Below the pieces are notes generated by a model. It did not search any database. It saw only the letters and a program-made list of their open reading frames with translations, and was not told where the DNA came from. The position numbers and the translations under genes are program-made. Positions 10,214 through 58,300 of a DNA stretch of 64,000 nt are shown here, in pieces. Positions within the stretch are counted from its first letter, which is position 1, and each line of letters begins with the position of its first letter. The DNA comes from Iphione sp. A-MEVVRFRX5 (lineage: Eukaryota), in the NCBI GenBank assembly GCA_976226885.1, contig OZ320313.1, positions 52,638,001 through 52,702,000 on the forward strand. The letters are read 5' to 3'.

Positions 10214-12182
10214 AGGAAAAGGGGACATTAAGGGAGGGAGACCAGGAGGCACTGGGATTTGGTGTATGCATCACACATACCCAGAGGACAGTCATTCCGA
10301 CCAGCCAGCGTTGCAAGGTTTAATAAGAAACCGTTAAAAAGAGAGAGGGAGCCGGCTATTAGAGGCAGGAACCGTCAGCAGCGTGGCCTTATTGAACTGA
10401 CAACGACTCACGTCCGCGAAAAACACCTCATTGACAACTAACTATGGTGGTCAGATAGAGTGATAACTCAGTCCCCGTGACCATGCGCTCGGAACTCTGC
10501 CCTGTCCTGTAGTCGTTCAGCTGCTCGGGTAGTGGTGTCGTAGACCCAGCTGTGCCATCCAGGCAAGGATTTATGCCCCTCGTCATAGCGCGCTCGTGCC
10601 TGACGACCGCTAGCGCACGTCGCCGCTACGTCTCGGTCACGTTACGGCTACGCCCTGTCCGTCTTTCATCATAGCATCGACCGCGCGACGGTCACGCAGG
10701 CGCAGTGATCATATTACACTGATTAGCACTGCCGAACTGCCAATGCGCAAGTCAACTGAGGCGCCACCGCCAATCGACCCCTTGTGGAAACACAGACTAT
10801 AAATTTCTACCCGGATTGGACCAGTCGCGACGCTACTTACGTCGTAGACCTGTGTGTGGCCAATACAATTCGCTTCTTTATATATTCTAGTAAGCCCGGT
10901 AAGGCAAACAGTGGAATACGATTTCGATATGACTTCACTGTTTCCTTCAAATCAAAATTCGCTTCAGATGTGTTAAAGTATATATACAAATGTAATTACA
11001 GAACAAGAAAAGACACGGCCCCATTTTTTCAGGTAAGATGTTATAAGATTATTTTAACTTTTCTCTTCCCCTCTCCCTACCCCTCTGTCACCAGTTTCTA
11101 TTGTGCGTGTGTGTCTATGTGCGCGTGTCTGTTCCCTGACACCATTCATTACCAGGGTGAGAAAAATGGCCGCCCTCCCGGAGTTCCTTCCTCCAATTGC
11201 CATCCAGCAGTGAGCAGCTCGCTGGAGTGGCTCCATCCGCTCCTGGGCCCCTAGGTCCCCAATGCCGAGACCATTAATAAAGAAAACCCGTCATTTTCTC
11301 GCCTTTTTTCTGGTCCGCCTCCTGCCTTACTCACTCTATCCTCACCTATCACTACGAACCTCATTAATGTCTGGGTTTATCAAGGCTTTCAGCCAATTAG
11401 TGCGCAGAGGGTAGCGACGCCGGGTGGAGATATCGGTGCAAATTGTCCAGTTTACTTCCAGGGCACGCAGGAATGTGTATTTCTACTAATGACACCATTT
11501 CTCAGCATATAGGCAGGTACACATGGTACACAAGAAATATCATCGGCAAGAAACTGATAGTTTCCCTATCACAAACATACACTGGTCAGCCTAAAGAGAC
11601 ACATTCCACTTTCAATATGATAATAATTCGGTGCGATGTGTCTCCAATAATTTCTACATCAGTGATGAAAGGTGCAGGTAGTTGGCACGTTTGCCAAATT
11701 GAAGATGGAGAGATGATGGAAACGATACATGCATGGCCGTCATAGGCGCCGCCCTCGTTCAGAATGGGTTCCACCCATATGTTTTGAATTTTGCAATGAG
11801 ACCGTCTCCCAGGCGATAGCTTTCACAGCCACCCTACAGGACGTCGATATATTGTCCCTAATCTCTGCCATATTTACCATGCATCACTTTAGTCGCTGTC
11901 CTTGAAAAAAGGACGCGACGACTAACAAGGAAACTGTAACCCCTGTTGCCTGTCACATGTTTTCGATTTATGGTTGGAATTGTTCTAACCTACACCAATT
12001 TATATCAATCATGTTCACTCTACAGATGAGAGATAAGAAAAAAAGAACAATTTCAAGACATTCCCGTGTGCATATTATATTATCGAACAGCAAATGTAGC
12101 AGTACCAAAAATATGTGCTTGAAGGAAAAAAGATTCACCTAGATTCTTATCAAGCTAATTCTATTGTAGAATAAGGTAAGTC

Positions 12183-12417
12183 GTGGTGCCACGGCCAGAT
12201 GGAGTGTACTCGGTGACCCTGGTACTGGTAATAAGTGTACAGAGTCGTGGTGCCACAGTTTGGTAAGATGTACTCAGTGACCTCGGTATTACAGTTGAAT
12301 AAGATAAGTCGTGGTGCCACGGCTAGATTAGGTGCACTTTGTGACCCTAAAGGCTGGACTTAAGAAAGAACCGTGGCACCACCGTTATTCATAGCAAAGA
12401 AAAAGTTAGGGGTGACC
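12183..12417. promoter_or_regulatory. U3 tandem repeat (about 64-bp period) carrying four GTGG(TG/CA)CCAC palindromes and four GTGACC motifs
   Basis: GTGGTGCCAC at 12183, 12247 and 12311, and GTGGCACCAC at 12373. GTGACC at 12213, 12277, 12341 (each exactly 30 nt after a palindrome start) and 12412. The same array is in the 3' LTR at +9905. Confidence 0.85.
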
Positions 12418-12560
12418 TTGGGCCCTGGTAATCCAGGCCCCTATTACTTTGTAGCTTTTGCCTGTGCATTGATTGGTGGAACAGAATGACACTGAACATG
12501 TTGTAGCAGTTTTATTCCATACATTGATACATGGCCTGATCACATGACACTGTGGATTGC

Positions 12561-12590
12561 TATAAATAAGAGCCCAGTGTGGCAAATAAA
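12561..12590 (+). promoter_or_regulatory. LTR TATA box (TATAAAT, 12561) and AATAAA poly(A) signal (12585-12590); 3' LTR copies at 22466 and 22490-22495
   Basis: Motifs are in the sequence, in the order usual for a U3/R junction. Confidence 0.7.
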
Positions 12591-12784
12591 GTCAGTCTGA
12601 ACTTGGATTACGTTGTGGCACTTGTCTCTTCAGGGAATGATAGGAACACAAAACCACTTGGAGCAACCTTAAGGGTGGGCTTGAGGATTACCTAGTGGAG
12701 CAATACTAGTAAGGCAACTAAGCCAGGATACTAGCAGTCATAGCTGGATACTGCCAAGTGGAGAATTAAACACGCATATTACAC

Positions 12785-12802
12785 TGGTGTCAGAAATGGG
12801 AT
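12785..12802 (+). other. Primer-binding site, probably tRNA-Leu
   Basis: TGGTGTCAGAAATGGGAT starts 1 nt after the 5' LTR. It matches the complement of the tRNA-Leu 3' end (TGGTGTCAGAAGTGGGAT) with one mismatch. Confidence 0.85.
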
Positions 12803-12814
12803 TCCCCAGACAGG

Positions 12815-13666
12815 ATGGCTACAGCGTATGTCTCAGTGGATGATGAGGTTCAGATTCGGGTGACTAGTCCTACACCCGCCGAGGAAGAAGACGAACACTT
12901 TGAGATTGCTCCAGAGGAGCCATTGAAGATGAACACCTTGAAACCCGAACGCTTCGATGGGAAGACTGTCGATTGGGACAGCTGGATTGGCCAATTTTCC
13001 GAGTGGGCGGATGCATGCCGTTGGGGCGAAGATACCAAATGTTCGGCCCTAACTTTGTCGCTCACCGGGACAGCACGCATGTTCTACGGAGACTTACCCG
13101 CAGATGACAAGAGGGATTATGCCTCGAGGGTGGCAGCCCTGGAGCGGCGCTTCGGCCGACGCAGGGATCGGGTGGTAGCGATGCAGAAACTGTCCGGAGT
13201 GAGACGACAGAAGGACGAGGACATCCGAGACCTGGCTGACCGGGTAAGGAGGTTAGTTCGCACAGCTTATCCCGATGTAACCGGGGAGACCAGGGAACTG
13301 GCAGCCGTGGCGGCCTTTCAGAGGGCCTTAGCAGACTCCTTGCATCTCAAATGCCTGGAGGCAAAATGCACCACCCTTGACAATGCCATCCAGGTAGTGG
13401 AGACTCAAGAGCGGTTCCGGGCGAAGACAGTTAATGTGGTACAACAGCCGCCCGCTCCCCCAGTCACTCCGACCTGGAAGAAGGAAGTGGAGGAGATCAT
13501 TGCGCAGGAATTACGCAAGTTCCGTGAAGGAGAGAAAGCCCAGGAGGAGGGAAAACCTCGGAGACCGCGATTTACGGGATGCTACCAATGTGGACAACAA
13601 GGCCTCTTTAAGCGGGATTGCCCACAGGCCCCTACCCAGGGAAACGCCCAGCAGCCAGCCCAGTAG
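12815..13666 (+). CDS. gag: Gag (283 aa) with capsid-like core and a degenerate C-terminal zinc knuckle
   Basis: ORF begins just after the PBS. Contains retrotransposon Gag-like motifs (KPERFDGKTVDWDSWIGQF; RRQKDEDIRDLADRVRRLVRTAYP) and CYQCGQQGLFKRDC (C-X2-C-X4-L-X4-C). Confidence 0.92.
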   Translation: MATAYVSVDDEVQIRVTSPTPAEEEDEHFEIAPEEPLKMNTLKPERFDGKTVDWDSWIGQFSEWADACRWGEDTKCSALTLSLTGTARMFYGDLPADDKRDYASRVAALERRFGRRRDRVVAMQKLSGVRRQKDEDIRDLADRVRRLVRTAYPDVTGETRELAAVAAFQRALADSLHLKCLEAKCTTLDNAIQVVETQERFRAKTVNVVQQPPAPPVTPTWKKEVEEIIAQELRKFREGEKAQEEGKPRRPRFTGCYQCGQQGLFKRDCPQAPTQGNAQQPAQ

Positions 13667-16600
13667 GCCAGGAGGGCTTGGCTGAACAGACCCCTACGGG
13701 GCAGATAATGGAACAAGGCCAGGGGCCACATTTACAGGTAAGCGTGAGGGGTGACAAATACTTGTTTCTCATTGACACGGGGGCTGAAGTTTCCATTATT
13801 AACCCGGGGGTGGTCCCTGGCCTAGATGGTGAAGGCGGGGATGTCCGTATTACTGGGGCAGGGGGGCACGTTATCCCCACATTGGGCCGGGAGATTCTGG
13901 AGGTTGAGATAGCGGGTCAACAGTTTACTCATCCTTTCCTGATTGCCAACATTGGGGAGGAGGGTCTGCTGGGGAGTGATTTCCTCAACCAACATCAGGC
14001 AGTTATAGATTTAGCACAGGGGAGGGTTCGATTTGGCCCAGGGATAGGCACCCGACAGATTCTGGGAGAACGGGTCCCTTTGCGTTTGGCCCATGACGTT
14101 ACCCTTCCCCCGGGAGAGGGAATAGCAGTCCCCCTAACTAATGGGGGTGGTGACGCCTTCCTAGTGGAGGGAGTAGAGGAGGACCAATTGAGGAGAGGGA
14201 TCTTTGGGATTCGAAGTGTTGTCAGAACTGCATTACCTTTGTGGAATCTCCAAAACCAAGAAGTTACGTTGACACAGGGTACCCTGGTGGCAATGGGTTA
14301 CCCTGCCAGTTGTCTAGAGAACAAGGAAGGAGGGTACCCGGCTAGAGTCTGTGCCGTTCGGAGGGAAGTGGAAGCAGTGCTGAAGAATTTGCTAGCGCAG
14401 GCCGCCCCACGCTTGGAGCACGAAGAACAAGGAGCATTAGCCGAGGTGCTCAGGAAACATGCGGCCGTGTTTGCTCAGACAAAGGGGGACTTGGGGAGGA
14501 CCGATATCGTTCAACACCGAATTTATCTGACCGACCCCCACCCCATCAAGCAACCTCCCAGGCGCCTCCCGCTGACACGCCGGAAGGAGGAGCGGGAGTT
14601 AGTACAAGAGATGAAGACTTTGGGGGTGATACAGGAGAGTAATAGCCCTTGGTCCAGCCCCGTGGTCATGGTGCGAAAGAAAGACGGTACCACCCGGTTC
14701 TGCGTAGATTATCGAAGGCTCAACCAGCAGACTAAGGTGGATGCATACCCCCTGCAGAGAATTGACGACTCATTGAGTACCCTGGCCGGAGCTCGCTATT
14801 TCTGTTCATTAGACTTGGCGTCGGGGTACTGGCAAGTACGAATGCACCCCGATGACCAAGAGAAGACGGCCTTTTCTACGTCGGTGGGCCTGTATGAGTT
14901 CACCGTGATGCCATTCGGTCTGGTGAATGCTCCGGCCACGTTTGAACGCTTGATGGATACTGTGCTTCGTGGATTAGCCTGGGAACAATGTCTGGTGTAC
15001 TTGGATGACATTCTGGTTTTCGGTCGGGACTTTGAAGAGACCTTGTGTCGCTTGGACAATGTACTGAGCCGCATCGCCAGTGCCGGCCTGAAACTAAAGC
15101 CTACGAAGTGTCAGTTGTTTCTGGAGGAAGTCAGTTTTCTAGGCCATGTGGTGTCGCAAAAAGGAGTAGCTACTGACCCCGTGAAGACAAAAGATATTAT
15201 CGAGTGGCCAACCCCACGATGCACGACAGACGTCCGTGCTTTCCTGGGGATCTGTTCCTACTATCGCCGACATGTTCCCCAGTTCGCCGATCTAGCAGCC
15301 CCGCTTAACCGGCTGACCAGCTCGCGAGTAAGATTCTCCTGGGGCCCCCAAGAGGAGGCTGCCTTCCAGAGCCTCAAACGCGCACTCAGCACCAGCCCGG
15401 TCCTGGGTTATCCTCATGCAGAAGGCAGGTACTACCTGGACACCGACGCCAGCAATGTTGGCCTGGGGGCCGTTCTGGCCCAGGAGCAGTTGGGCGAAGA
15501 AGTTGTGTTAGCCTACTTCAGCAGGAGCCTCAGCGAGGCTGAGCGGCGGTACTGCGTCATGAGAAGGGAACTGCTGGCCGTGGTAGCTGCACTCAAGCAC
15601 TTTCATTTCTACCTGTATGGGCAAGACGTCACTGTACGCACTGATAATGGGGCGGTGAGCTGGCTGACGAGGATAAAAGACCCTGAGGGACAGCTAGCCA
15701 GGTGGCTGGAGAGGATCGGCCAATACCAAGTACAATTCGTGCATCGGGCCGGCCGCCTGAATTCAAACGCAGATGCACTCTCTCGGCGCATTTGCAGACA
15801 GTGCAAACAGCCTCACCTGGAGCAAGAGGAACCCATATCAGCCACGGTACGGGTGGTCACGCGAAGTCAAATCACTGACGCCTGTTCACAAGATCTGCGC
15901 CGGGAGCAGCTATTAGACGAGGCAATAGGGCCTGTCCTGCGACTAAAAGAGAACGAGAACGACCGACCCTTGTGGGACAAGGTCTCGGCCTTGCCCGCCT
16001 GCGCCAAAGCCCTCTGGAGACAGTGGGACCGGCTAGTGGTGCATGATGGACTCCTACAACGCCGCTGGTATGGGATCGGGGATGGGCCGTCTAGGCTACA
16101 GGTTGTACTCCCCGCCAGCCGACGAGATGCAGCCATCGAAGAAGTACATGCAGGTCGCACGGGAAGTCACCTGGCAACGGATCGTACCACCTACCTGATT
16201 GCCCTCGCCTATTATTGGCCTGGGATGAGGCGAGAGGTGGAGGCCTTCTGCCGCCGCTGTCATTGCGCCCTGCTGAATGTCAACCCGTACAAGCCCCAAA
16301 CGACGTTAGTGACCTACCTGCCGGGAGAACCGATGGAGAGGTGGTCCATGGATGTGGCCGGCCCCCTGCCTGAGACTCGGCGGGGGAACAAATACATACT
16401 GATGGTGGGTGATTATTTTACGAAGTGGTTAGAGGCTTTCGCCATGCCGGACCAGAAGGCTGGCCGGGTGGCTACGCTCCTTGCTGAGGAAGTTATCTCA
16501 CGATATGGGTGCTTCTTGGAAATCCACAGCGACCAGGGCACGAACTTCTGCAGTGAGGTCCTAACAGCACTCTGCCAGTTTCTGGAAATTAAGAAGACCC

Positions 16601-17274
16601 GTACGACCCCGCGTCACCCACAGAGTGATGGATTTATAGAGAGGAGTTTCCGTACTGTTGGGCGCATGGTGAAAGCGCACTGTTATGAGACACAAGACGA
16701 TTGGGACGAGGCCTTACCCTACCTTATGATGGCATATAGGGCCTCCCCGCAATCTAGCACGGGGTATACCCCCAACCTCCTAATGTTCGGACGAGAGGTC
16801 GTACTACCGGTACATGCCTGGGCTGGGTTCCCGCAACATTGTCCCGACGAACGACCCCTCCCGGAGAGGGTAGCTGAAGTGAGTCGCCGACTTCAAGTCG
16901 CTTTCAAGACCGTGCGACACCATCTCCAGCGAGCTGCTAAGACCCAGGGACGGGCGTACGATCGGAGGGTCGAGGGAACTCAACTTCGGGAAGGGGACGT
17001 CGTTTGGCTACACGAAGCCCAACCCCCAAGAGGTCAAAGCCCGAAGACCTACTTCCCCTGGATTGGACCCTGGCTGGTTGTCAAACGATTGGACGATGCA
17101 CGGTATGTCGTTCAGCGCACGCGAAAGGCGAGACCGAAGGTAGTTCATCGCAACCGCTTGCGGCGCTACTGTAGTGGGAATCTACCACGGTGGATAGTCA
17201 GTTGGCGGCGAGCCCATCTCCCGACGGACGGAGACCGGGCAGGGACAGACGATTCAAAGGAAGAGAGGCTATAG
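13618..17274 (+). CDS. pol: Pol polyprotein: aspartic protease, reverse transcriptase, RNase H, integrase (probably entered by frameshift near 13645, not at the listed start)
   Basis: PR: FLIDTGAEVS. RT: LDLASGYWQV, MPFGLVNAPATF, YLDD. RNase H: LDTDASNVGLGAVL, RELLAVV, TDN, ADALSR. IN: H-X6-H finger, MDVAGP / HSDQG / FIERSF (DDE) and a GPW version of the GPY/F motif. Uninterrupted 1218-codon frame. Confidence 0.97.
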   Translation: MPTGPYPGKRPAASPVGQEGLAEQTPTGQIMEQGQGPHLQVSVRGDKYLFLIDTGAEVSIINPGVVPGLDGEGGDVRITGAGGHVIPTLGREILEVEIAGQQFTHPFLIANIGEEGLLGSDFLNQHQAVIDLAQGRVRFGPGIGTRQILGERVPLRLAHDVTLPPGEGIAVPLTNGGGDAFLVEGVEEDQLRRGIFGIRSVVRTALPLWNLQNQEVTLTQGTLVAMGYPASCLENKEGGYPARVCAVRREVEAVLKNLLAQAAPRLEHEEQGALAEVLRKHAAVFAQTKGDLGRTDIVQHRIYLTDPHPIKQPPRRLPLTRRKEERELVQEMKTLGVIQESNSPWSSPVVMVRKKDGTTRFCVDYRRLNQQTKVDAYPLQRIDDSLSTLAGARYFCSLDLASGYWQVRMHPDDQEKTAFSTSVGLYEFTVMPFGLVNAPATFERLMDTVLRGLAWEQCLVYLDDILVFGRDFEETLCRLDNVLSRIASAGLKLKPTKCQLFLEEVSFLGHVVSQKGVATDPVKTKDIIEWPTPRCTTDVRAFLGICSYYRRHVPQFADLAAPLNRLTSSRVRFSWGPQEEAAFQSLKRALSTSPVLGYPHAEGRYYLDTDASNVGLGAVLAQEQLGEEVVLAYFSRSLSEAERRYCVMRRELLAVVAALKHFHFYLYGQDVTVRTDNGAVSWLTRIKDPEGQLARWLERIGQYQVQFVHRAGRLNSNADALSRRICRQCKQPHLEQEEPISATVRVVTRSQITDACSQDLRREQLLDEAIGPVLRLKENENDRPLWDKVSALPACAKALWRQWDRLVVHDGLLQRRWYGIGDGPSRLQVVLPASRRDAAIEEVHAGRTGSHLATDRTTYLIALAYYWPGMRREVEAFCRRCHCALLNVNPYKPQTTLVTYLPGEPMERWSMDVAGPLPETRRGNKYILMVGDYFTKWLEAFAMPDQKAGRVATLLAEEVISRYGCFLEIHSDQGTNFCSEVLTALCQFLEIKKTRTTPRHPQSDGFIERSFRTVGRMVKAHCYETQDDWDEALPYLMMAYRASPQSSTGYTPNLLMFGREVVLPVHAWAGFPQHCPDERPLPERVAEVSRRLQVAFKTVRHHLQRAAKTQGRAYDRRVEGTQLREGDVVWLHEAQPPRGQSPKTYFPWIGPWLVVKRLDDARYVVQRTRKARPKVVHRNRLRRYCSGNLPRWIVSWRRAHLPTDGDRAGTDDSKEERL
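13639..13697 (+). other. -1 programmed ribosomal frameshift signal (gag-pol)
   Basis: Slippery heptamer G GGA AAC (13639-13645) lies in the gag frame and pol is in the -1 frame. After a 6-nt spacer comes a stem CAGCCAGCCC (13652-13661) / GGGCTTGGCTG (13674-13684). Confidence 0.8.
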
Positions 17275-17779
17275 AAGGATGCCTCGGCGAAACGGCGAAC
17301 GGAAAACCCCCATCTCTTGAAGTGCTCTTGAAAAATGTTCAGGGTAGGCGACGTGGGAAGCCTGAGGTACCAAGATGCCTGAAAGTCCCAGGAGTGGGCG
17401 AGGTGGGCAGCCCGAGGGTGCGTAGACACCCAAAAACAGCCCAGGGAAGAGGGAGACGCAGATCCCTGCAGGTGCCGGAAATATGGTCGGAGGTACGAGG
17501 AGCTCACCTGAAGTTGCAATTCGTGCAACGAGAAAAAGAGGCTCCTGGGGGAGGACTGATGAACGCCCCGAGATGCGAGCTGAAAACCCGGAAAGGTTCA
17601 TGGGGGGAGGCGACCATCCCCTAGGGCACCTGAAAATCTCTGTGGAGGGAGAGAATGACTGAACACCCTGCAAGAGCACTGGTCAAGAGGAGTTGGGGGG
17701 GAAACGGCAAGGAGATGTGGACCTCCTGGAACTCGGAATGGGAGTTCGAAAGAGCCCAGAAGAAACGGAGAGAAGGAAA

Positions 17780-17910
17780 CCGAGATGCGGGCCATTCCCT
17801 CTGGAAGTGACGCCAAGATGTGGTCCTTGTCCTCTGGTAGAAGAAAGGCCAAGCCACGCTCTATGTCCTCTAGAAGTGAAGCCAAGGTGAGGTCCTTGTC
17901 CTCTAGATGG
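17780..17910. repeat. Four degenerate 33-36 bp tandem repeats (CCRAGRTG...CCTCTRGA)
   Basis: Units start at 17780, 17813, 17849 and 17882, so spacings are 33, 36 and 33. Related cores lie at 17370, 17568 and 17710. Confidence 0.75.
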
Positions 17911-18018
17911 AGGGGAGAAAAGACAGTCAATGATCATTGAAAAAAAAAAATCAGTGGGTTATAATCTACAGTAATAGACGGAACACTGAACGCAAGTATA
18001 CAAGATGTGAAAGAACAA

Positions 18019-18024
18019 TTTATT
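18019..18024 (-). terminator. Poly(A) signal for the antisense gene
   Basis: AATAAA on the minus strand, 88 nt after the stop codon at 18112, followed by a T-rich stretch. Confidence 0.55.
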
Positions 18025-18111
18025 ACAGAGTAACGTATTTTCAGTCTGAAGTGCAAAACACATATACTAGAGGACGATATGTACAGTTCGGAAGTATACA
18101 GTCCGGCAGCC

Positions 18112-18848
18112 CTACTCTAAGATGATCGGATAGCTAGCCGAATCTCCGGGTTGCATCTCAGGAAACCAGTCCCGCAGAATATCGTCGGGCAGGTCATCTA
18201 ACAGAATCCTGCCGAGTGCTGGACCGGTAGCTGGTGAGCCAACCGGAGTGGGGCGTGAAGGCGTGTCCTGAGTGGTGCCACTGGAGGAGGATGAGGGCGA
18301 GCACGGCCCGAAGAGAGCGTCCGCCAGCAGGCTGATAGACCCGGCCGAACTCGGGCGGCCGGAGTCCGTACTGGAGGGCGGATCCCAGGGGTCCAGCCGG
18401 TCGGTGGTCCAGCTCCCTGGAGACCAAGAAAGGCTGGATGAAGCGGCCGGTGAGAGGCAGGGCGGCGTCATAGACCCCCCCCGGTACCAGCGAGGAGACG
18501 GCTCGGGGGGATCACCCAGCGTGGTGAAGTACGATGCCACCATCCGGGGGCTGATCTCCGGGGAGACCACCTCTGTGCGGGGCGCGTAAGACGGGCTCCT
18601 TGGAATGGTCGAAGGTGGTGTGAAGGATCGGGGGTCGGCGACTGATGGCTCAAGGGGGTAGACAGAAATATCTACCCGATGGTTCGGCCCGAAGAGCCGG
18701 ATGGTGCCGGGGGCTGGGACAAACAGTGGCTCTGTGAGAATCGGGTAGAGGCCGAAGATCCTGATTGTCGGCCCCGGGGTGCCGATGTCCAGCGCCCGGT
18801 AGTACCAGTCCGGGGGCTGGGATCTGAAAGAGGAAGAGAGCTGCGATG

Positions 18849-18888
<40 letters not shown>

Positions 18889-19282
18889 GGAAGAAGAAGA
18901 TTGGACTCACCCAGACCAACTCCGGGAGAATATGGCTGCCACACCTGAAAACAAGAGAGGGTGGAATCTTGTAACAGCAAACACAACTGCAACCATCCCA
19001 ACAGGTAAAGTCTCTGACAACACTTGGTAGGCAAGGGTAAAAGGAGAGAACCCCCATTGGTGAGCAGGAAAGGGGAGGCTTGCAGGGGGGGTACACCCCA
19101 TTGGAGGGAGGAAGGGGGAGGTTCACCCCCCAACCATAAGGGTAGGCCCTACCCTGGGAGGGAGGAAGCAAGAGGGGGGGCTCTCCAGTTAACCCCTCTA
19201 GATAAATACACTGAGGTAGGGAAGCTTACCTGTCCTCCATGGGGGGGTATCCCATCAAGTAGGCAGGTGGCCAGTAGTCCAT
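18112..19282 (-). CDS. Three-exon antisense accessory gene, 271 aa: join(complement 19230-19282, 18911-18944, 18112-18840)
   Basis: ATG at 19282. Intron 1 (285 nt): CAG|GTAAGC ... CTCTCTTGTTTTCAG|. Intron 2 (70 nt): TGG|GTGAGT ... T39-CATCGCAG|. Exons of 53, 34 and 729 nt join in frame. Protein: MDYWPPAYLMGYPPMEDRCGSHILPELVWLSSSFRSQPPDWYYRALDIGTPGPTIRIFGLYPILTEPLFVPAPGTIRLFGPNHRVDISVYPLE...ILLDDLPDDILRDWFPEMQPGDSASYPIILE. Confidence 0.8.
18849..18887 (+). repeat. A39 homopolymer (the poly-T tract of antisense intron 2)
   Basis: Seen directly. It lies between GTGAGT and CAG on the minus strand. Confidence 0.95.
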
Positions 19283-19313
19283 GATGACAATCCTCGTCGA
19301 GGCCGAGTCAGCG

Positions 19314-19349
19314 AGTGACGGCGGGTCGAGTGCAGCGCCCCCTTATATA
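19314..19349 (-). promoter_or_regulatory. Internal antisense core promoter (TATATAAG plus Inr-like TCACT)
   Basis: Minus-strand TATATAAG at 19349-19342. TCACT with its A at 19316, 33 nt downstream of the TATA start. First ATG at 19282. Confidence 0.65.
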
Positions 19350-19374
19350 GCTGCCGCAGGCCAGAAAAATAATC

Positions 19375-20182
19375 GTGGTGCCACGGGCCGAAAATCTTAT
19401 GACGCAATTTGTGAACTACGCCGCGGGGAAACGGATTCGACATGCAACGAGGAGGAACAAGTCAGGAATAACGGTGGTGCCACGCCCCGGGGGACATTTG
19501 TGGATCAAGACAGGAAATATTGCAAGAAGAACATCGCGTAACGAATCGTGGCACCACGAGTGGGGCTGGGCCGGAAATGGATAACGTCAACATCCGCGTC
19601 TGCCTCGCTCTGGATCCGGCTACGAAGAAAAATAGCCGTGGTGCCACGGATAAAAAGTGAAGGGTGGAGGTGACTTAAAATTAGCACACGACAAGTTTAA
19701 ACAGTGTACAGAGAAGAAAAGGGTTGAAATAACTGTGGTGCCACGGGCAGAAACGTTTGCAAATAAAAACGAAAACTTTGGGAGAAATCGCGGCACCACG
19801 GTTTGCTTCAGAAGATCAGCGTCCACTGTTGGATTTGCTCCCCCTCCCCCGTGTTTCTCCAGGAACAGGACAGGCAGGGCCCCCGGTCAACTGTGCACCA
19901 GGGGAAGGTGAAAACAAAGATCTATCCACCAATTTTGCGGAAGGAGGAGGAAACTTACATCGAGCCCCAACGAAGCGACAAGAAAAATCCGTGGCACCAC
20001 GGGCGGACTGGTCGTGAGACGTCAGGTAATTCCTTCACTTTGAATAAGATTGCCCTCCCCGGATTGTTATTATTCTCCTGTGATACGTAATCTATACGGG
20101 ATCTGTGTGCCTAAATCTTGTTTTCGCCGTATGTGACCGTGGTACCCCGAAACACCTGGACCCTAAAAAACGGTGGCACCGC
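19375..20182. promoter_or_regulatory. Internal array of the LTR palindrome GTGG(TG/CA)CCAC
   Basis: Exact copies at 19375, 19474, 19548, 19638, 19735 and 19991. One-mismatch copies at 19790 and 20173. Most are preceded by an A-rich run and flanked as CGTGG..CCACG. Confidence 0.85.
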
Positions 20183-20189
20183 GGCCAGA

Positions 20190-21581
20190 ATGCCTCGCCA
20201 TAAGATCGACGGCCCCACTCTCCCGCGCACCCTGGACAAGGACGACCCCCTCCCGGAGGGGACCAAGCTCTGCCCCAAGTGTGAGGTCGCTGGGAAGCGA
20301 CGCCCCTTCTACCCTGGCGACTCCTTGAAGCGCCATGACGACGAATTTCATCAAGGAAAGCGCAGGCGTTTTGTCCGTTGTTTTCTGTGTCCGAAGACAC
20401 TCAGCGAGGACCAAACCTGGGTATCCCACCACCGCCGGTACCATCCATGGGCGGTGAACCTGGGGATGGTGGAGCGCCCCTATCGCCGCTTATATGATGC
20501 GAACCCGGCACCGACAGTTGAGGCTCCCGATGACGAGATCACCGAAATTATTCTGTGGGCCCGAGAATTACGCCAGCGGGGAGACTACCTCGGACCAGAG
20601 GAAGCCGAGGCCATGCTGGCTGCCTCATCGCGGAGGGCCCCGGCCCCTCTACCGCTGCGGAAATGCCATCTAGCTGATCCTCGACCTGAAGGGGCATTGG
20701 AATTGGCAACCCCACGACTACCTCCGACACCGGACTCCGAAGAGGATGCCCACCGCCCTGTTGGCTCACCTCAGCCAGGCCCTTCCTGGGAGGCCGCTCC
20801 TCGGACCGGGCCATCCGCCGAGCCAGAAGGTGCCACTGCCCAACTAGAAGGGGTCGGTGCTAGGGATACCGGCGCCACTGGAGAGACCGACTACCCAACT
20901 GCTGCTGGCAACCTCCCACTGTTGTTGGAAGGGCGATTGGTCCGCCTCGCCCGTGCGGACGTCCCCCCTGGGTGGGTTGACCCCGCCACTAGGTTAGTCC
21001 GCGACATGCTGGATGGAGTCGCCCATCCGAGGATACCCGTGATGAGGAGCCGTTTCGAGCCAGCGGCTGTGCGCCTTCCCCCGACAATTACCTGGCCGCC
21101 ACCCCGTTGGGGGGAGATGACACCAGCTCAACGCATGATGACGAGTGCTTCGCTGGCGTGGGTGCTTCAGCTTGCCGAGGAGGGGGACCGGCTGCCAGGG
21201 ACATTGCTAGGCCCCCTAAGGAAACGACCTGCTCTTCTGCTGCCGGGACTGGAAATACCGACAGCCAACGAGTGGGGGGACCCGGCCGACCTCCTCACTC
21301 GCAATAACAAAACCATTGAAGCCGCCGAAGCCGCCCTGCGTGACACCCAACCCGGACCCTCCCGAGGACCCCGCCGGGTAAACACAGAGCTCCTCCAGTG
21401 GACCCAGCAGGCCCAGGAGGCTCATCGACTTCATCAAGCCCGACACCCCACCTTAGCGGACATTTGTAACCATGCGCCGCCCCTGCAGTCCCTCCTCAGT
21501 CTCGAGGACGTCTGGGGAGATGATGAAGAGGAGGAGTTAAGCACCGAGGCGGGTGACGCCCGAGAAGGTTCTACAGAGTAA
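20190..21581 (+). CDS. Accessory protein (463 aa): two N-terminal C2H2-type zinc fingers, Pro-rich linker, uncharacterised C-terminal domain, acidic tail
   Basis: Long open frame with first ATG at 20190. Finger 1: C-X2-C-X8-F-X5-L-X2-H-X4-H (CPKC...FYPGDSLKRHDDEFH). Finger 2: C-X2-C-X3-L-X5-W-X2-H-X4-H (CFLCPKTLSEDQTWVSHHRRYH). Ends DVWGDDEEEELSTEAGDAREGSTE. Confidence 0.85.
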   Translation: MPRHKIDGPTLPRTLDKDDPLPEGTKLCPKCEVAGKRRPFYPGDSLKRHDDEFHQGKRRRFVRCFLCPKTLSEDQTWVSHHRRYHPWAVNLGMVERPYRRLYDANPAPTVEAPDDEITEIILWARELRQRGDYLGPEEAEAMLAASSRRAPAPLPLRKCHLADPRPEGALELATPRLPPTPDSEEDAHRPVGSPQPGPSWEAAPRTGPSAEPEGATAQLEGVGARDTGATGETDYPTAAGNLPLLLEGRLVRLARADVPPGWVDPATRLVRDMLDGVAHPRIPVMRSRFEPAAVRLPPTITWPPPRWGEMTPAQRMMTSASLAWVLQLAEEGDRLPGTLLGPLRKRPALLLPGLEIPTANEWGDPADLLTRNNKTIEAAEAALRDTQPGPSRGPRRVNTELLQWTQQAQEAHRLHQARHPTLADICNHAPPLQSLLSLEDVWGDDEEEELSTEAGDAREGSTE

Positions 21582-22056
21582 AGAAGGGATGAGTCACTGT
21601 TAAGCTAATCTTTTAGAAGGAAAGCATAAAAGGAACTGTATCCGAAAAAAAAATATATTTTGAAGGTTCTTTGTTTGTTGCTTGGTAAGCAAGCTGTACT
21701 CCTGCCCCCAATGGGGGATTGCTATTCTGGATGCTCGTGAGCAGGAAACAAAAGAGGACTGTACCTCCAAAAAAAAAAAAATTTTTTTGACCACTGGATT
21801 TCACCCTCTGTGAGGGGTGGCTACACAAGAGAGTTAAGGCCAAAAGTAGAGGACTGTACCTCACAAAAATAAGGAAGAATTAAAACACGAGTATTTATTC
21901 AAGGATGGACTGTTTGACCCCAATCAGGGAGCACGGGGGGGGGGGCCAACAACTTATAAGACTATACCTACCCCAGAAGTTGAAGGAGGACTCCCCGATA
22001 TGCCCGGCTAGATGGTAAGTACCCTGACTCCTGTTTCACGAGGGGGACTGTGTTTT

Positions 22057-22069
22057 AAGGAGGGGAGAG
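22057..22069 (+). other. Polypurine tract
   Basis: AAGGAGGGGAGAG immediately before the TG of the 3' LTR. Confidence 0.9.
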
Positions 22070-22688
22070 TGTAGAATAAGGTAAGTCGTGGTGCCACGGC
22101 CAGATGGAGTGTACTCGGTGACCCTGGTACTGGTAATAAGTGTACAGAGTCGTGGTGCCACAGTTTGGTAAGATGTACTCAGTGACCTCGGTATTACAGT
22201 TGAATAAGATAAGTCGTGGTGCCACGGCTAGATTAGGTGCACTTTGTGACCCTAAAGGCTGGACTTAAGAAAGAACCGTGGCACCACCGTTATTCATAGC
22301 AAAGAAAAAGTTAGGGGTGACCTTGGGCCCTGGTAATCCAGGCCCCTATTACTTTGTAGCTTTTGCCTGTGCATTGATTGGTGGAACAGAATGACACTGA
22401 ACATGTTGTAGCAGTTTTATTCCATACATTGATACATGGCCTGATCACATGACACTGTGGATTGCTATAAATAAGAGCCCAGTGTGGCAAATAAAGTCAG
22501 TCTGAACTTGGATTACGTTGTGGCACTTGTCTCTTCAGGGAATGATAGGAACACAAAACCACTTGGAGCAACCTTAAGGGTGGGCTTGAGGATTACCTAG
22601 TGGAGCAATACTAGTAAGGCAACTAAGCCAGGATACTAGCAGTCATAGCTGGATACTGCCAAGTGGAGAATTAAACACGCATATTACA
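22070..22688 (+). repeat. 3' LTR
   Basis: Copy of 12165-12783, followed by the TSD CTAT. Confidence 0.97.
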
Positions 22689-54445: not shown

Positions 54446-55362
54446 CCAAAAAGTATCCTTAAGTATTTAGTGGAAAGGACTTTATCTACCATTTACACTG
54501 ATTACAATTTCCACGGCTATAGCATTGGATAATAATTGATAAAGATGGGAATAATGTAGCATTTTAATGCAGAAGTGTCTGCAAACAACCAGGCATGGCC
54601 ACGGATGGGGGTCAAGCCTTGGCAGATGCTTTTAACAACATCAGTCAGACCAATTTACATGGTGGGGCTGCAGAGGCACAATGGCAGAATCTCGTGGATG
54701 AGTACTTTCTCTATGAGGAAGAGGTGAAGGAGGGCCTGGTGGATGAGGGGGATGTTGAGGAGGTAGAAGAACAATTGGAGGAAGAGGAAGAACCCTTAGG
54801 AGACATCTATGATTCACTGGTAGTCACTGATCCTACTGAGGAGATCCTGAGAGACTAGTGGGTGCACTGTGAAAACTTCAGGTGAGTTCTTTTAATCTGC
54901 CACAACAGTGACACGCAGTTGCTCCTAACAATTGAAGAACAAACATATTAGAGAATTGTCTCTATAGTTGCAAATCCCCTTTCAGATTCTGAATTCATGT
55001 TAGAATAGGTTTTTATCATTGCATTTGTATTTAGGGCCATTTTAGAATTTTCTAAACTATGAGAAACTGACCATGTGAACATATCCTGTAGGAGTTTGTG
55101 CAAAATTAATAGGTTTTGACTGTTGTATTTAGGGCCATTGTAAATTTTTTTAAACTGGGAAACTGACCACGTGAACATATCCTGCAGGTGCTTTTGTAAA
55201 CACTAAATTACGACAACTGCAGCAAACAGTTCATGGCAACCGAGTTGGCAGACGGCAAGAATTTTTCCAGCTGTCTTCAGGTACTTATTGCTTCCCAAAA
55301 AGTATCCTTAAGTATGTAGTGGAAAGGACTTTATCTACCATTTACACTGATTACAATTTCCA
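54446..55362. repeat. 68-bp direct repeats (54446-54513 and 55295-55362, one mismatch) enclosing a two-copy about 100-bp tandem repeat (about 55024-55200)
   Basis: CCAAAAAGTATCCTTAAGTAT[T/G]TAGTGGAAAGGACTTTATCTACCATTTACACTGATTACAATTTCCA occurs twice. TGTATTTAGGGCCATT...GAAACTGACCA[T/C]GTGAACATATCCTG occurs twice. Confidence 0.85.
54595..54881 (+). pseudogene. Exon-like coding fragment with an in-frame stop, possibly from a DNA transposon
   Basis: Protein-like MATDGGQALADAFNNISQTNLHGGAAEAQWQNLVDEYF plus an acidic stretch. Acceptor TTTAATGCAG upstream and strong donor CAG|GTGAGT at 54882. A TAG (54856-54858) interrupts the frame 8 codons before the donor. Confidence 0.4.
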
Positions 55363-58300
55363 AGGAACGGCCTATATATGAACATATACATTAGATAAAA
55401 AATACCTTGGGCCTCGCTATCACGTAACATAAATGCAGCCAGATAAAGCCCCAGTTCCAAGGGTCATGTGGCACCATGCCTAACCCTGCAGGTGTATGTG
55501 ATGGTAGGGGTGGGCGAAGGATAGGTTGGCGATGAAGAGAAAGGAGGTTGCCCACGCCCATACCCACACGACTAGAGAGAAGCCTGACGCCCAACTCCTC
55601 CGGGCGCGACCTCGAAACGACGCCATTCTCACGCGTAGCTTCCATCTAGGGAGACGATTGTCACTCAGCAATATTGGTCATGACAATGGCTCCATTGGTT
55701 GTGCTTTGATTGGCTTTGTTTGTGGGAGGAGGATAGCGGCCCGCTGCCAGAAAGAGTGTGGGCCAGATACACCATCCGCCACCGGCCCACTCCACCTGCT
55801 TTCAGGCTTGCCCCCCAAGCCCTCTCTCGCCCTGTCTCTCTCCTCAAACTAAATCCCAGCCTCCTCCTTCACCCAGGTTGCATCGCAGCTCTTACAGCAA
55901 TTAGCCTCAGAAGGGCTCTTCCTACTGTAAGAATATGCGCGATAGGCTATGAACAAGAGGTCACAGCCCATCAAGTACCCTCTTTTTCGGTATGTATTCT
56001 CCGTAAGAAGCAGCACGCCTAGGTTGCTTTGCATTCGGGGAAGGAAGCGGTGCCTGAGAACGGCAGGTCAAAAAGTTAGCCTTGCTAAGGAAGAATGTCA
56101 GGTGCGCCGAGATAACGATATCACGTGACAATGGAAGTGAGCACTGCGAAACTTGTCTGTCTGCGTCGTCGGGGTGGTGGGGGTGGGGGGGGCGTGGTTG
56201 AGAAGATGCAGCCGGCGGCCAATGAAACACGTCTATCTCTAATGGAGAGGACGGTAAAGGAGCACTGTGGGAACAGCTTCCGAGAGGATTACAGCAATAG
56301 ATCAGAGCAATAGATGCGGCAAGATAAGTTAAGCAAGGCGAAGCTATGTGGGAAATCAACAGCAAATAACAAAACATATCCAGCAAATTAAACCGTACAA
56401 TTGAAGGCGTCCAGTGCGAGTAAAGCGATATAAAGTTCTGAAGCTTTTAACTGGATAGAAGCTGAAAGATCAACTCGGAAAGCTATGCCAAAAGGACGAT
56501 GGCGGTAACGCAGCAGGGGGCCCACGGAGAATGAGAATTCGGAAAGGGCTGTAGACAAAGCGGATAATTGTGTTTGAAAGCCCCTACGCAATATTTCAAA
56601 TAGAATAAAATTCATCTCGAGGCAATGTTGACCCAGGCGAATCGATCCTATCAAAGACATCGGTGGCGCCGTACGCAAGTGTACAACTAGTGGTCGCTTC
56701 CCGAACTATCCCCCTGTTCCTCGGTCAAATTGATTGCAAGCCGGAAGAATCCAATGGCCGCATAATTCCTCCGACCTCCAGACTGCTAAAAAAAGGCTTA
56801 AACTTAATAGAGGTCCGATTCCGGTGAGGCTTGGTCTACAGGAATGAACTTTACTACTGTGGATATTCACTGGGCGTCTTGAAACAACTATTCCATCTAC
56901 CGACGATTGATTAGTGGTCATAGCGGAGGGTAGATAGGGAAAATATTACACATTCCATTCGAATTAATTTGAATTAATCATAATCGGTATCAGTGTAAAT
57001 TGGCGGTTTTTGGCGCCAAAGCGTAAACATTTTTTTCTGTGCCTGTTACCAATGCATGTGTTCAAGGCATGCCCTCCTAAATGGATAAACTGTCCCCGTT
57101 CCAATGTGACAGTTTCGGTTGGGAAGCCCTGCACAATTGGGCCGTTTTCTTATGCTACTTCATTAGAAAGCATAAGAAATGGAGACTCGGGAGAAAAAGG
57201 ACTTATTCATACATTGGGGACATTTATGGAAATAACCGCGTGCTGGGGGAAATCATCAAACGAGGCCAAACTTGATGTTGCTTTGGAGGCCGTCGATGCA
57301 TGATCTGGCCGTATTATTACATCACGCCATGTTCTTGTTGGAGCGTTGCAAACGATTCCAAATTCTGATGGAATTCTGTTAAAAAGATTATTTTTATCAC
57401 GAAAGGGGACAATTGGGTTCTCTTTATTCTATTAATGTTTCTTGCAGTGATTCCATCCTAAGCCACTAGTTGTGTACCTCCCGGTTCCACATTTTTCCAC
57501 CCCTCGGTTATTCGGATTTTATTTTCTTGCATTGTCCCTGCTTCCCTCATATATGCTAGTTACACAGATAGCTGGCGTCTGCATTATTATGTATCTTTGA
57601 CATTCTGTTATGGTGTTTTCTATCGACAGCTGTGTCGTTATAGATACAGTGTAGGCGCGGAACAGAAAGTGATTTTCTCGAGTTGTTCGAAGTTCGTCTT
57701 TGTTAAAACATTATGCCACTGCTTCTGTATCTTTCTTGTGCCGGAAGACGCTCGGTTCATACAGGCATTCACACAAAGGCATGCGGGCACGCGCACGCAC
57801 GTTGAAAAACGAGTGGTGACATCCTATTCCCTTCTACGCGTGACATTGCACGGCTCATTGCCTGCATGTCGCAACATTAACTTCTCCCGCCTATCCCATG
57901 AAAGAGTCCATCCACGAGGAAACTATTGGGGAATGGGGATGGGGGCTCAGATGCTTCGTTGGTAGGGGGGATAGAAGCGAGAGTGGAGCCATGGTAGGAG
58001 CCACCGAGCGCCATTAGAGGTAGCTCAGAATCCAGGAGAGGAACTTCTGCCGTAAGGAACTGCCAACATTCCCCCAGAAACGTAATGTTAGACGACTCTT
58101 TGCTAGACAGAACAACTACGATATGAGGCATGGTGAGCACTCTTACCCGTATGTTTCTCATGCTTTCTGTTCAACGTATGTGTTCTTGCACGACTCCCTC
58201 TAAACTCATATGTTTACAGCATAAACAAAATTAAGCTGTTTTCCCCTATTAATAAGTTTAATACACATTTAGAAGAGAATCCCTACGTTAGGTTGTTTTC

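Follow-up and report, generated by a model that had tools for sequence, protein, structure and literature searches.

A conserved intron-containing antisense gene within a Ty3/Gypsy retrotransposon of Iphione sp.

The window analysed here, a stretch of 64,000 nucleotides from Iphione sp. A-MEVVRFRX5 (contig OZ320313.1 of assembly GCA_976226885.1, positions 52,638,001 to 52,702,000 of the forward strand), contains an intact, young long terminal repeat (LTR) retrotransposon of the Ty3/Gypsy type, which occupies about 10.5 kb at positions 12165-22688 of the forward strand (Table 1). The 4.8 kb between its pol frame and its 3' LTR hold two extra genes arranged back to back, an antisense gene and a sense open reading frame (ORF) of 463 aa encoding a zinc-finger protein. 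Judged by comparison of its copies, the antisense gene is conserved, selected and intron-containing. It is predicted with considerable confidence to consist of two coding exons specifying a 254-aa protein, and we propose, at what we consider even chances, that this accessory protein serves as an anti-silencing adaptor linked to the small ubiquitin-like modifier (SUMO) and ubiquitin systems. A preliminary description of the same DNA had recognised a spliced antisense gene, to which it assigned three exons and a product of 271 aa.

Searching the genome with the antisense and the finger protein (150 of about 940-1100 candidates being scored in each search) gave copies of the element in 54 further 10-kb stretches. 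These comprise families A (that of the window), B, C, D, F and G, with Pol proteins 61-96% identical to that of the window, and the pol-deleted family E. A survey of 78 loci covers families A-D, F and G; six family-E loci and locus L071, which have no anchor domain, were excluded. The 78 loci were chosen via the accessory genes, so that the presence of these genes among them is biased. Among copies picked by their integrase DNA (the closest 30 of 367 candidates), 29 of 30 carry at least 150 aa of the last exon and the remaining one 136 aa. The ratio of nonsynonymous to synonymous substitution rates (dN/dS) of the last exon is 0.09, 0.07 and 0.07 against three diverged family-A copies, equal to the 0.07 obtained for pol (one pair), and 0.12, 0.28 and 0.15 against families B, C and D, where dS is near saturation. 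The two other antisense frames have ratios of the corresponding proportions (pN/pS) of 1.6-2.4 and contain 7-10 stops, and the mirror sense frame, with a pN/pS of 0.25-0.28 and 9 stops, behaves as the expected shadow. Since purifying selection is confined to one antisense frame, the gene is, on this comparative evidence, protein-coding. That the antisense RNA is the working product and the frame a by-product appears a very faint prospect: micropia, for one, is known to make antisense non-coding RNA from an internal promoter (PMC7264820), but selection acts on a single frame, the last exon is open over its full length in 70 of the 78 loci, no long sense frame lies over the antisense gene, and the RNA would not overlap pol, since about 750 nt separate its poly(A) signal from the pol stop. 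Among pol-deleted copies, L049, L050, L072 and L085 retain gag, the antisense gene and the finger gene, and family E (L051-L056) retains gag, the antisense promoter, an exon-1 remnant and the finger gene, its last-exon domain being lost.

The two-exon structure is supported by several features. Exon 1 joined directly to position 18823 remains in frame and yields 17 + 1 + 236 = 254 aa. An intact ATG exon with a phase-2 donor is found in 74 of 78 loci (exon 1 is missing in two and has a 1-nt slip in two), and a YAG acceptor homologous to that at window position 18824 in 76 of 78, across six families; in the 30 closest copies the acceptor AG at 18825-18824 is present without exception. Exon 1 measures 89 nt in families B-G versus 53 nt in family A, with phase 2 throughout; in all families but one of the six its last codons specify GYPP[MIV][ED]D, and the peptide across the junction reads PP[MIV][ED]D-R-SQ[PTA]PD in five families. 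Sequence homology between families begins precisely at the AG of 18824, and a branch-like TTCAT within the predicted intron places its A 24 nt from the 3' end. Reading through the first donor (donor 1) adds a single codon, R, before a stop (76/76 loci). In full-length copies of families A-D an AATAAA signal follows 48-121 nt past the antisense stop.

Many elements of the preliminary description stand. The TATA box at 19349-19342, the initiator-like signal, the ATG at 19282, the AATAAA starting at 18024, donor 1 after 19230, an acceptor TTTCAG before 18944 and a second donor TGG/GTGAGT after 18911 (the inner donor) are located as it had claimed, and the TATA box, ATG, donor 1, acceptor 18945 and inner donor are all retained in 30 close copies. 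It had also been noted correctly that a stop at 18909-18907 limits the unspliced frame (ORF 18112-18906), the first Met being codon 100 of the proposed exon 3. The three proposed exons indeed join in frame (53 + 34 + 729 nt = 272 codons), but the conserved product is that of two exons, and the second acceptor on which the 271-aa protein depends did not hold up, since 18842-18841 reads AG in 12 and TG in 18 of the 30 closest copies. A check of splice-site conservation across copies, which the preliminary description had recommended along with one of dN/dS, singles out the acceptor at 18824 and not that at 18841. The proposed 70-nt second intron has adenosines only at -2, -7, -61, -62 and -67; because none falls within 18-40 nt, the usual window for a branch A, it has no usable one.

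It is accordingly improbable that the three-exon, 271-aa form is the main product even of the window copy, which does have all four sites and the in-frame join. Of 43 family-A loci, 42 retain both sites of the 34-nt cassette (exon 2 of the preliminary description). An AG upstream that keeps the frame, and with it an open three-exon route, is found in only 14 of 42 loci, at a distance of 17 nt in 12 of them and of 23 nt in the other two. Where a sub-lineage has this additional AG, the 271-aa form may occur as a minor isoform. Apart from the loss of the 18841 AG and the want of a branch A, 4 of the 42 family-A loci have a stop within this middle exon, its peptide is not conserved, it is absent from families B-G, and the homology of exon 1 and the last exon meets precisely at the two-exon junction. 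The frame that results from cassette inclusion is not under selection and was rejected as a coding form.

The predicted intron contains, in addition to the inner donor, a 39-nt run that reads as poly-U in the antisense pre-mRNA and as poly-A in the genomic RNA, the inner donor lying 5-56 nt ahead of it in the loci printed. The inner donor matches U1 small nuclear RNA better than donor 1 does in 23 of 23 loci of families C, D, F and G, and equally well in 10 of 10 of family B. No conserved in-frame product arises from it: when it is used without donor 1, the immediate stop stays in the transcript, and the nearest AG upstream defines an exon of 34 nt (family A) or 1 nt (family B), both of which shift the frame. 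The inner donor and the poly-U run thus likely constitute a splicing switch or a recursive site. Drosophila msl-2 and Sex-lethal provide a comparable off switch based on U-rich-RNA binding. What speaks against a switch is that the inner donor of family A never surpasses donor 1 in its match to U1, being equal to it in 6 of 41 loci and better in none. We consider it rather unlikely that the inner donor is instead a recursive (zero-length exon) site or a U1 decoy that aids intron removal and leaves the same two-exon mRNA. Families C, D, F and G do have an AG directly before the inner-donor GT, with 10-15 pyrimidines in the preceding 20 nt, but the gaps of 34 nt in family A and 1 nt in family B shift the frame, and the introns here measure only 116-413 nt, most known recursive sites being located in introns of great length. 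An intron-internal alternative start spliced in frame from the inner donor was discarded, as it occurs in 30 of 41 family-A loci and 1 of 33 others and is not conserved. Families B-G (L045, L057, L064, L073 and L077) have recurrent CAGTT words in the stretch from donor 1 to the inner donor, and a palindrome CAGTT-N9-AACTG is repeated in family-F LTRs. The antisense intron (18824-19229) is also very poor in CpG dinucleotides, with an observed/expected ratio of 0.13, compared with 0.36 for the LTR and 0.6-1.1 for the rest of the element and the flanks.

Antisense introns are invisible to the spliceosome on the sense genomic RNA, and the intron of this gene, being antisense to that RNA, would be copied along with it. 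The preliminary description had used this logic to explain how an LTR element keeps an intron, and the intron does persist in recently transposed copies. Its second proposal, an internal promoter instead of one in the 3' LTR as for HBZ of human T-cell leukaemia virus type 1 (HTLV-1), agrees with the position of the TATA box at 19349, the 3' LTR beginning only at 22070.

Table 1. Features of the retrotransposon and its accessory genes (positions are those of the window)
Feature	Position	Strand	Remarks
5' LTR	12165..12783	+	619 nt, TG...CA; palindrome CGTGG-N2-CCACG four times, ~64-nt spacing
gag frame	12770..13666	+	298 aa stop to stop; C-terminal zinc knuckle, weak zf-CCHC match (E 0.022)
Primer-binding-site-like stretch TGGTGTCAGAAATGGGAT	12785..12802	+	after 5' LTR; by sequence and position
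pol frame	13612..17274	+	1220 aa, intact; order protease-reverse transcriptase-RNase H-integrase
AATAAA poly(A) signal	18019..18024	-	87 nt past antisense stop
Last coding exon	18112..18823	-	1 nt + 236 codons + stop
Predicted intron	18824..19229	-	406 nt, GT-AG, phase 2
Poly-T run	18849..18887	-	39 nt; run of at least 15 in 71/76 loci with exon 1, six families
Inner donor GTGAGT	18905..18910	-	74/76 loci; upstream of poly-T run
34-nt cassette (exon 2 of the preliminary description)	18911..18944	-	family A only; frame shift when joined to 18823
First coding exon	19230..19282	-	53 nt, phase 2; ATG at 19282, donor CAG/GTAAGC after 19230
Initiator-like TCACTC	within 19311..19349	-	~31 nt downstream of TATA; from alignment
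TATA box TATATAAG	19349-19342	-	76/76 loci with exon 1, one mismatch allowed
Non-coding spacer between divergent genes	19350..20189	.	840 nt, nine palindromes; predicted bidirectional internal promoter
Sense accessory ORF	20190..21581	+	463 aa from ATG; two C2H2-like fingers, basic patch, second conserved block, acidic C-terminus
Polypurine tract	22057..22069	+	sequence preceding 3' LTR
3' LTR	22070..22688	+	identical to 5' LTR

All folds and searches of the antisense protein used the last exon alone, without the 17-29 residues of exon 1, which may complete the N-terminal domain. The first 56 last-exon residues are 61-88% identical between the window and six relatives. AlphaFold2 models this domain of about 56 aa with a predicted local distance difference test (pLDDT) score of 56.8, a hairpin at 39-54 and a beta-rich fold at low confidence, and the whole last exon at 34.5. 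The preliminary description had foreseen a foldable N-terminal part of about 95 aa with an internal repeat (GPTIRIFG / PGTIRLFG); the repeat is conserved, but the conserved domain spans only about 56-60 last-exon residues. Past it one third of the residues are Ser or Pro, in line with the Ser/Pro-rich remainder described there, and within this linker lie conserved islands, namely [VI]SP[ED] followed by a short helix, W[ST]TDxLDPW, DTPxxP, GPxLxR...IL... and GD. Short acidic W/F-rich motifs and a C-terminal amphipathic helix are conserved as well. The protein is acidic (23-33 Asp/Glu versus 13-21 Lys/Arg), with no arginine-rich stretch and, at a maximum 19-residue hydropathy of 0.8-1.3, no transmembrane stretch.

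The profile and structure-prediction searches that had been suggested for its identity returned no family, homologue or fold. Pfam gave no match for the last exon of the window and seven relatives except one weak hit to DUF7820, and none to PF04195 (Transposase_28), the domain of the Retand TRP28 and Grande gene23 proteins; none of 1645 candidates of 129-413 aa was a homologue, and no PDB sequence matched. Foldseek found nothing at E 0.001 against PDB and viral models, and VIA-align reached a best Z of 2.2, a missing structural match from which nothing follows about the novelty of the fold. A profile of 17 N-terminal domains drew two matches from 1.84 billion representatives, both tandem-repeat artefacts, and a metagenome scan yielded one locus with a 16-residue match and no gag, pol or finger gene nearby, which was put down to chance; its frame is presumably bacterial tRNA pseudouridine-synthase-like. 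A lead to the FHA domain for the N-terminal part had an Atlas score of 0.87, under the 0.9 mark; the pLDDT of the domain model is 57. An F-box-like reading of LDDLPDDILRDWF was dropped, having no Pfam support and being partly deleted in family D.

Two features, the C-terminal motif and the lack of lysine, weakly point to an adaptor on the SUMO/ubiquitin side. The motif, P-I-x-[LV]-[DES] in 16 of 16 proteins, resembles a SUMO-interacting motif (SIM) variant with Pro in first place. Lysine is absent from the last exon in 14 of these proteins (216-278 aa) and occurs once in the other two; six family representatives have together 1 Lys versus 13 Asn, where 15-17 Lys are expected from base frequencies and about 6 after control for the low AA-dinucleotide content (nominal P ~0.01, the families being related). 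Among proteins of the ubiquitin system, the ligase Slx5 being one, lysine deserts are overrepresented, and some viral proteins have them too (10.1101/2022.12.08.519562). Several observations count against the adaptor. The C-terminal motif, with Pro as its first residue, fails the strict SIM core V/L/I-V/L/I-x-V/L/I (or reverse, with acidic flanks) of PMC3161977, and in families D, F and G it has only two aliphatic residues. Asn is halved too, at 13 where 25 are expected, and each of the other antisense frames has no more than 0-3 Lys, so that much of the shortage of lysine is owed to base composition. No homologue or fold match points to a function. Finally, family E is without the last-exon domain (6/6 loci), yet has many copies with an open finger frame, and because it multiplied without this domain the antisense protein is dispensable in cis.

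An alternative that we judge quite improbable is a post-transcriptional role, either in Rev- or CERV-like export of genomic RNA or in particle trafficking. Exon 1 of families A-D carries PPxY or LPxY, and Ser/Thr-Pro sites are numerous; four pol-deleted copies keep gag together with the antisense gene. The Gypsy element Cer1 of Caenorhabditis elegans depends for the export of its genomic RNA on CERV, an accessory protein that is spliced and phosphorylated (PMC10309623). Against such a role, the protein is acidic and has no arginine-rich stretch, and the PY-like motif is degenerate outside families A and B.

The neighbouring sense ORF has no Pfam family and no homologue among 8000 scored candidates, Atlas leads pointing to C2H2-type clusters (0.87-0.91), and it is open in all families including the pol-deleted family E. 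Between the two divergent genes, the spacer contains nine copies of the palindrome CGTGG-N2-CCACG, which occurs four times in the LTR, not at all in gag-pol and once in the 53 kb of flanks; 1000 shuffles gave a mean of 0.1 and a maximum of 2. The TATA box of the antisense gene is 25 nt away from the nearest palindrome, and a further copy adjoins the finger ATG. In family B, GGCGG-N2-CCGCC-like sites occupy both spacer and LTR, with 0-3 sites of the A type, and in family D both regions carry CTTGG-N6-CCAAG, with a palindrome spacer of 6 nt instead of 2 (in L064, 12 D-type sites in the spacer, 9 in the LTR and none of the A type). Families C and F have A-type sites in the spacer, their LTRs being partly covered, and in family G the palindrome is degenerate. 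Because the site changes by family in two places at once, we infer an element-encoded binder, and the palindromes are best explained as targets of such a factor, most simply the finger protein. This assignment has to be set against the fact that finger residues do not obviously change in step with the palindrome, against the degeneracy in family G and against the sharing of one palindrome by families A and C at 44% zinc-finger identity. Some family-B copies (L047, L050) have a TATA-like box on the sense strand, about 60 nt ahead of the finger ATG, which was not seen in the window copy.

The two genes do not always share a history. In 11 copies the last exon is at least 99% identical to that of the window, the intron 88% and the 5' part of the finger gene 66-68%, and it is with other copies that the intron and the finger gene of the window reach identities of up to 99%. 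By these identities the window copy is a recombinant, in which the last exon and the extra AG come from a different sub-lineage than the intron, promoter and finger gene. The switch point lies within or beside the poly-A/T run (18846-18900; one case), which may favour template switching. Such reassortment bears on the idea that the antisense protein is a brake on, or partner of, the zinc-finger transactivator, through HBZ- or Bet-like self-restraint or as a co-activator with acidic-aromatic motifs. The divergent layout around common palindromes, the acidic W/F-rich motifs and the C-terminal amphipathic helix would fit it, and in foamy viruses Bet suppresses the internal promoter and splicing sets the Tas/Bet ratio (PMC13220597). 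However, two closely fitted partners should stay linked in transposition, so the exchange of finger genes between copies with nearly identical last exons counts against a partnership, family E keeps its finger gene without the antisense domain, and we regard this idea as distinctly unlikely. A complex prediction for the finger protein and the last exon, run without alignments, scored 0.00, from which no verdict follows.

Returning to the anti-silencing adaptor, we hypothesize that the palindromes are bound by a dimer of the zinc-finger protein, which would activate both the LTR and, in either direction, the internal promoter, in the manner of foamy-virus Tas, a step that we hold to be somewhat more probable than its opposite. 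To be productive, the antisense transcript would need the junction of donor 1 with 18823; splicing from the inner donor without donor 1, or inclusion of the cassette, would give a truncated product, and a host factor that binds U-rich RNA could gate the antisense protein by cell type, a point on which we are evenly divided. The C-terminal motif may then bind SUMO-modified chromatin-silencing factors while short motifs in the disordered part engage the ubiquitin or kinase machinery, and the antisense protein, because it is without lysines, might escape its own ubiquitylation; this binding and escape, taken jointly, we put forward tentatively, at slightly below an even chance. In its most far-reaching form the proposal is of an envelope-less animal lineage with its own cassette in the style of complex retroviruses, in which a self-encoded zinc-finger factor, with palindromic sites that co-evolve in the LTR and in a bidirectional internal promoter, is combined with a splice-gated, lysine-free, SUMO-targeting effector that removes silencers, and in this entirety we consider it unlikely.

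Structurally, the gene is by its position and conservation an aORF-3R, an antisense coding region downstream of pol and ahead of the 3' LTR that most copies possess and that is conserved like other element genes; its transcription from a promoter of its own is predicted from conserved TATA, initiator-like and AATAAA signals. It is a member of the class of antisense accessory genes and not of any known protein family. HBZ of HTLV-1 is likewise a spliced antisense protein of an LTR element. HBZ starts in the 3' LTR (PMC7264820), whereas the present gene starts about 2.7 kb inside the element and encodes no bZIP. Plant Gypsy and fungal Boty elements are known to carry antisense ORFs in this position, a number of which have a promoter of their own and a product located in the nucleus (PMC7264820, PMC11963269, PMC8365987), among them the plant aORF-3R genes Grande gene23, RIRE2 and Retand TRP28 (PMC7264820, PMC11963269). 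The plant genes share with the present one the position, presence in most copies, lack of a host homologue, an upstream promoter of their own (gene23) and retention in some non-autonomous copies; here, in contrast, the host is an animal, there is no TRP28, SMC or other Pfam domain, and the gene has a conserved intron with inner donor and poly-U run, a divergent finger gene and palindromes shared with the LTR. The brtn gene of Boty-like elements in Botrytis and Sclerotinia is also an antisense accessory gene in that interval of a Ty3/Gypsy element (Zhao et al. 2011, as cited by PMC7264820 and PMC8365987). According to a 2020 review, antisense spliced transcripts were still to be sought (PMC7264820).

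Foamy viruses, with Tas and Bet, offer the closest functional parallel in layout, having accessory genes at the 3' end, an internal promoter and DNA elements both there and in the LTR (PMC7390438, PMC13220597). Tas binds DNA in the LTR as well as in the internal promoter, thereby activating the two, and acts in a species-specific manner (PMC7390438); the lineage-specific activation and splicing-set output of that system are predicted here from sequence. In the present element, by contrast, there is no env and no sequence likeness was found, the genes are divergent with one of them antisense, and an identical palindrome recurs in LTR and spacer as a predicted binding site, while Tas targets share little sequence. 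VANC proteins of the VANDAL transposons act via short element-specific motifs and resemble the present system in combining an accessory protein with a family-specific, CpG-containing motif repeated in non-coding parts (PMC6719617); VANDAL, however, is a plant DNA transposon, no sequence likeness was found, and an anti-silencing function is here only inferred. CERV of Cer1 is another spliced regulatory protein other than Gag and Pol of an animal LTR retrotransposon, whose abstract describes no antisense layout (PMC10309623), likeness having been checked by general searches only. Internal promoters also occur in animal LTR elements, as for Tor env (PMC4402516). We found no description of a two-gene antisense/finger module in an animal Gypsy element in a search of mostly open literature without Repbase reports, and the excerpts of PMC8220671 and PMC13547354 contain nothing on animal antisense genes.

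What is new here is the combination of an animal host, an orphan protein, a conserved inner donor and a finger gene that is divergently placed and has co-varying sites. It has yet to be settled whether retrotransposons of animals specify activators or counter-defence proteins of their own, plant VANC being the most convincing transposon-encoded suppressor of silencing in the view of one review (PMC6719617), and the proposed function, if true, would amount to a transposon-encoded, family-specific anti-silencing system in an animal. The lineage lends itself to testing, since six families with exchanged sites and proteins supply built-in specificity controls and young intact copies are many. Annotation based on ORFs misses or mis-starts such antisense genes, and the antisense position lets a spliceosomal intron with regulatory-looking features survive many rounds of reverse transcription.

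The host element is assigned to Ty3/Gypsy by its two LTRs, target-site duplication, primer-binding site, polypurine tract and pol order. Both 619-nt LTRs are identical and are flanked by the duplication CTAT on either side, and the nearest named relatives of Pol in the homologue list are invertebrate Gypsy Pol proteins, the best at 64% identity. No env-like frame lies between pol and the 3' LTR, where the maximum 19-residue hydropathy is 1.3 (16 antisense and 17 zinc-finger proteins). Outside the element, none of the ten longest flank ORFs matches Pfam at E 0.01. Further short sense-strand poly-A runs occur at 17939-17950, past the antisense poly(A) signal, and at 21647-21655 and 21769-21782, past the finger gene. 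The flank also contains a direct repeat of 71 nt (54446-54516 / 55295-55365), the two copies of which are 97% identical and 849 nt apart.

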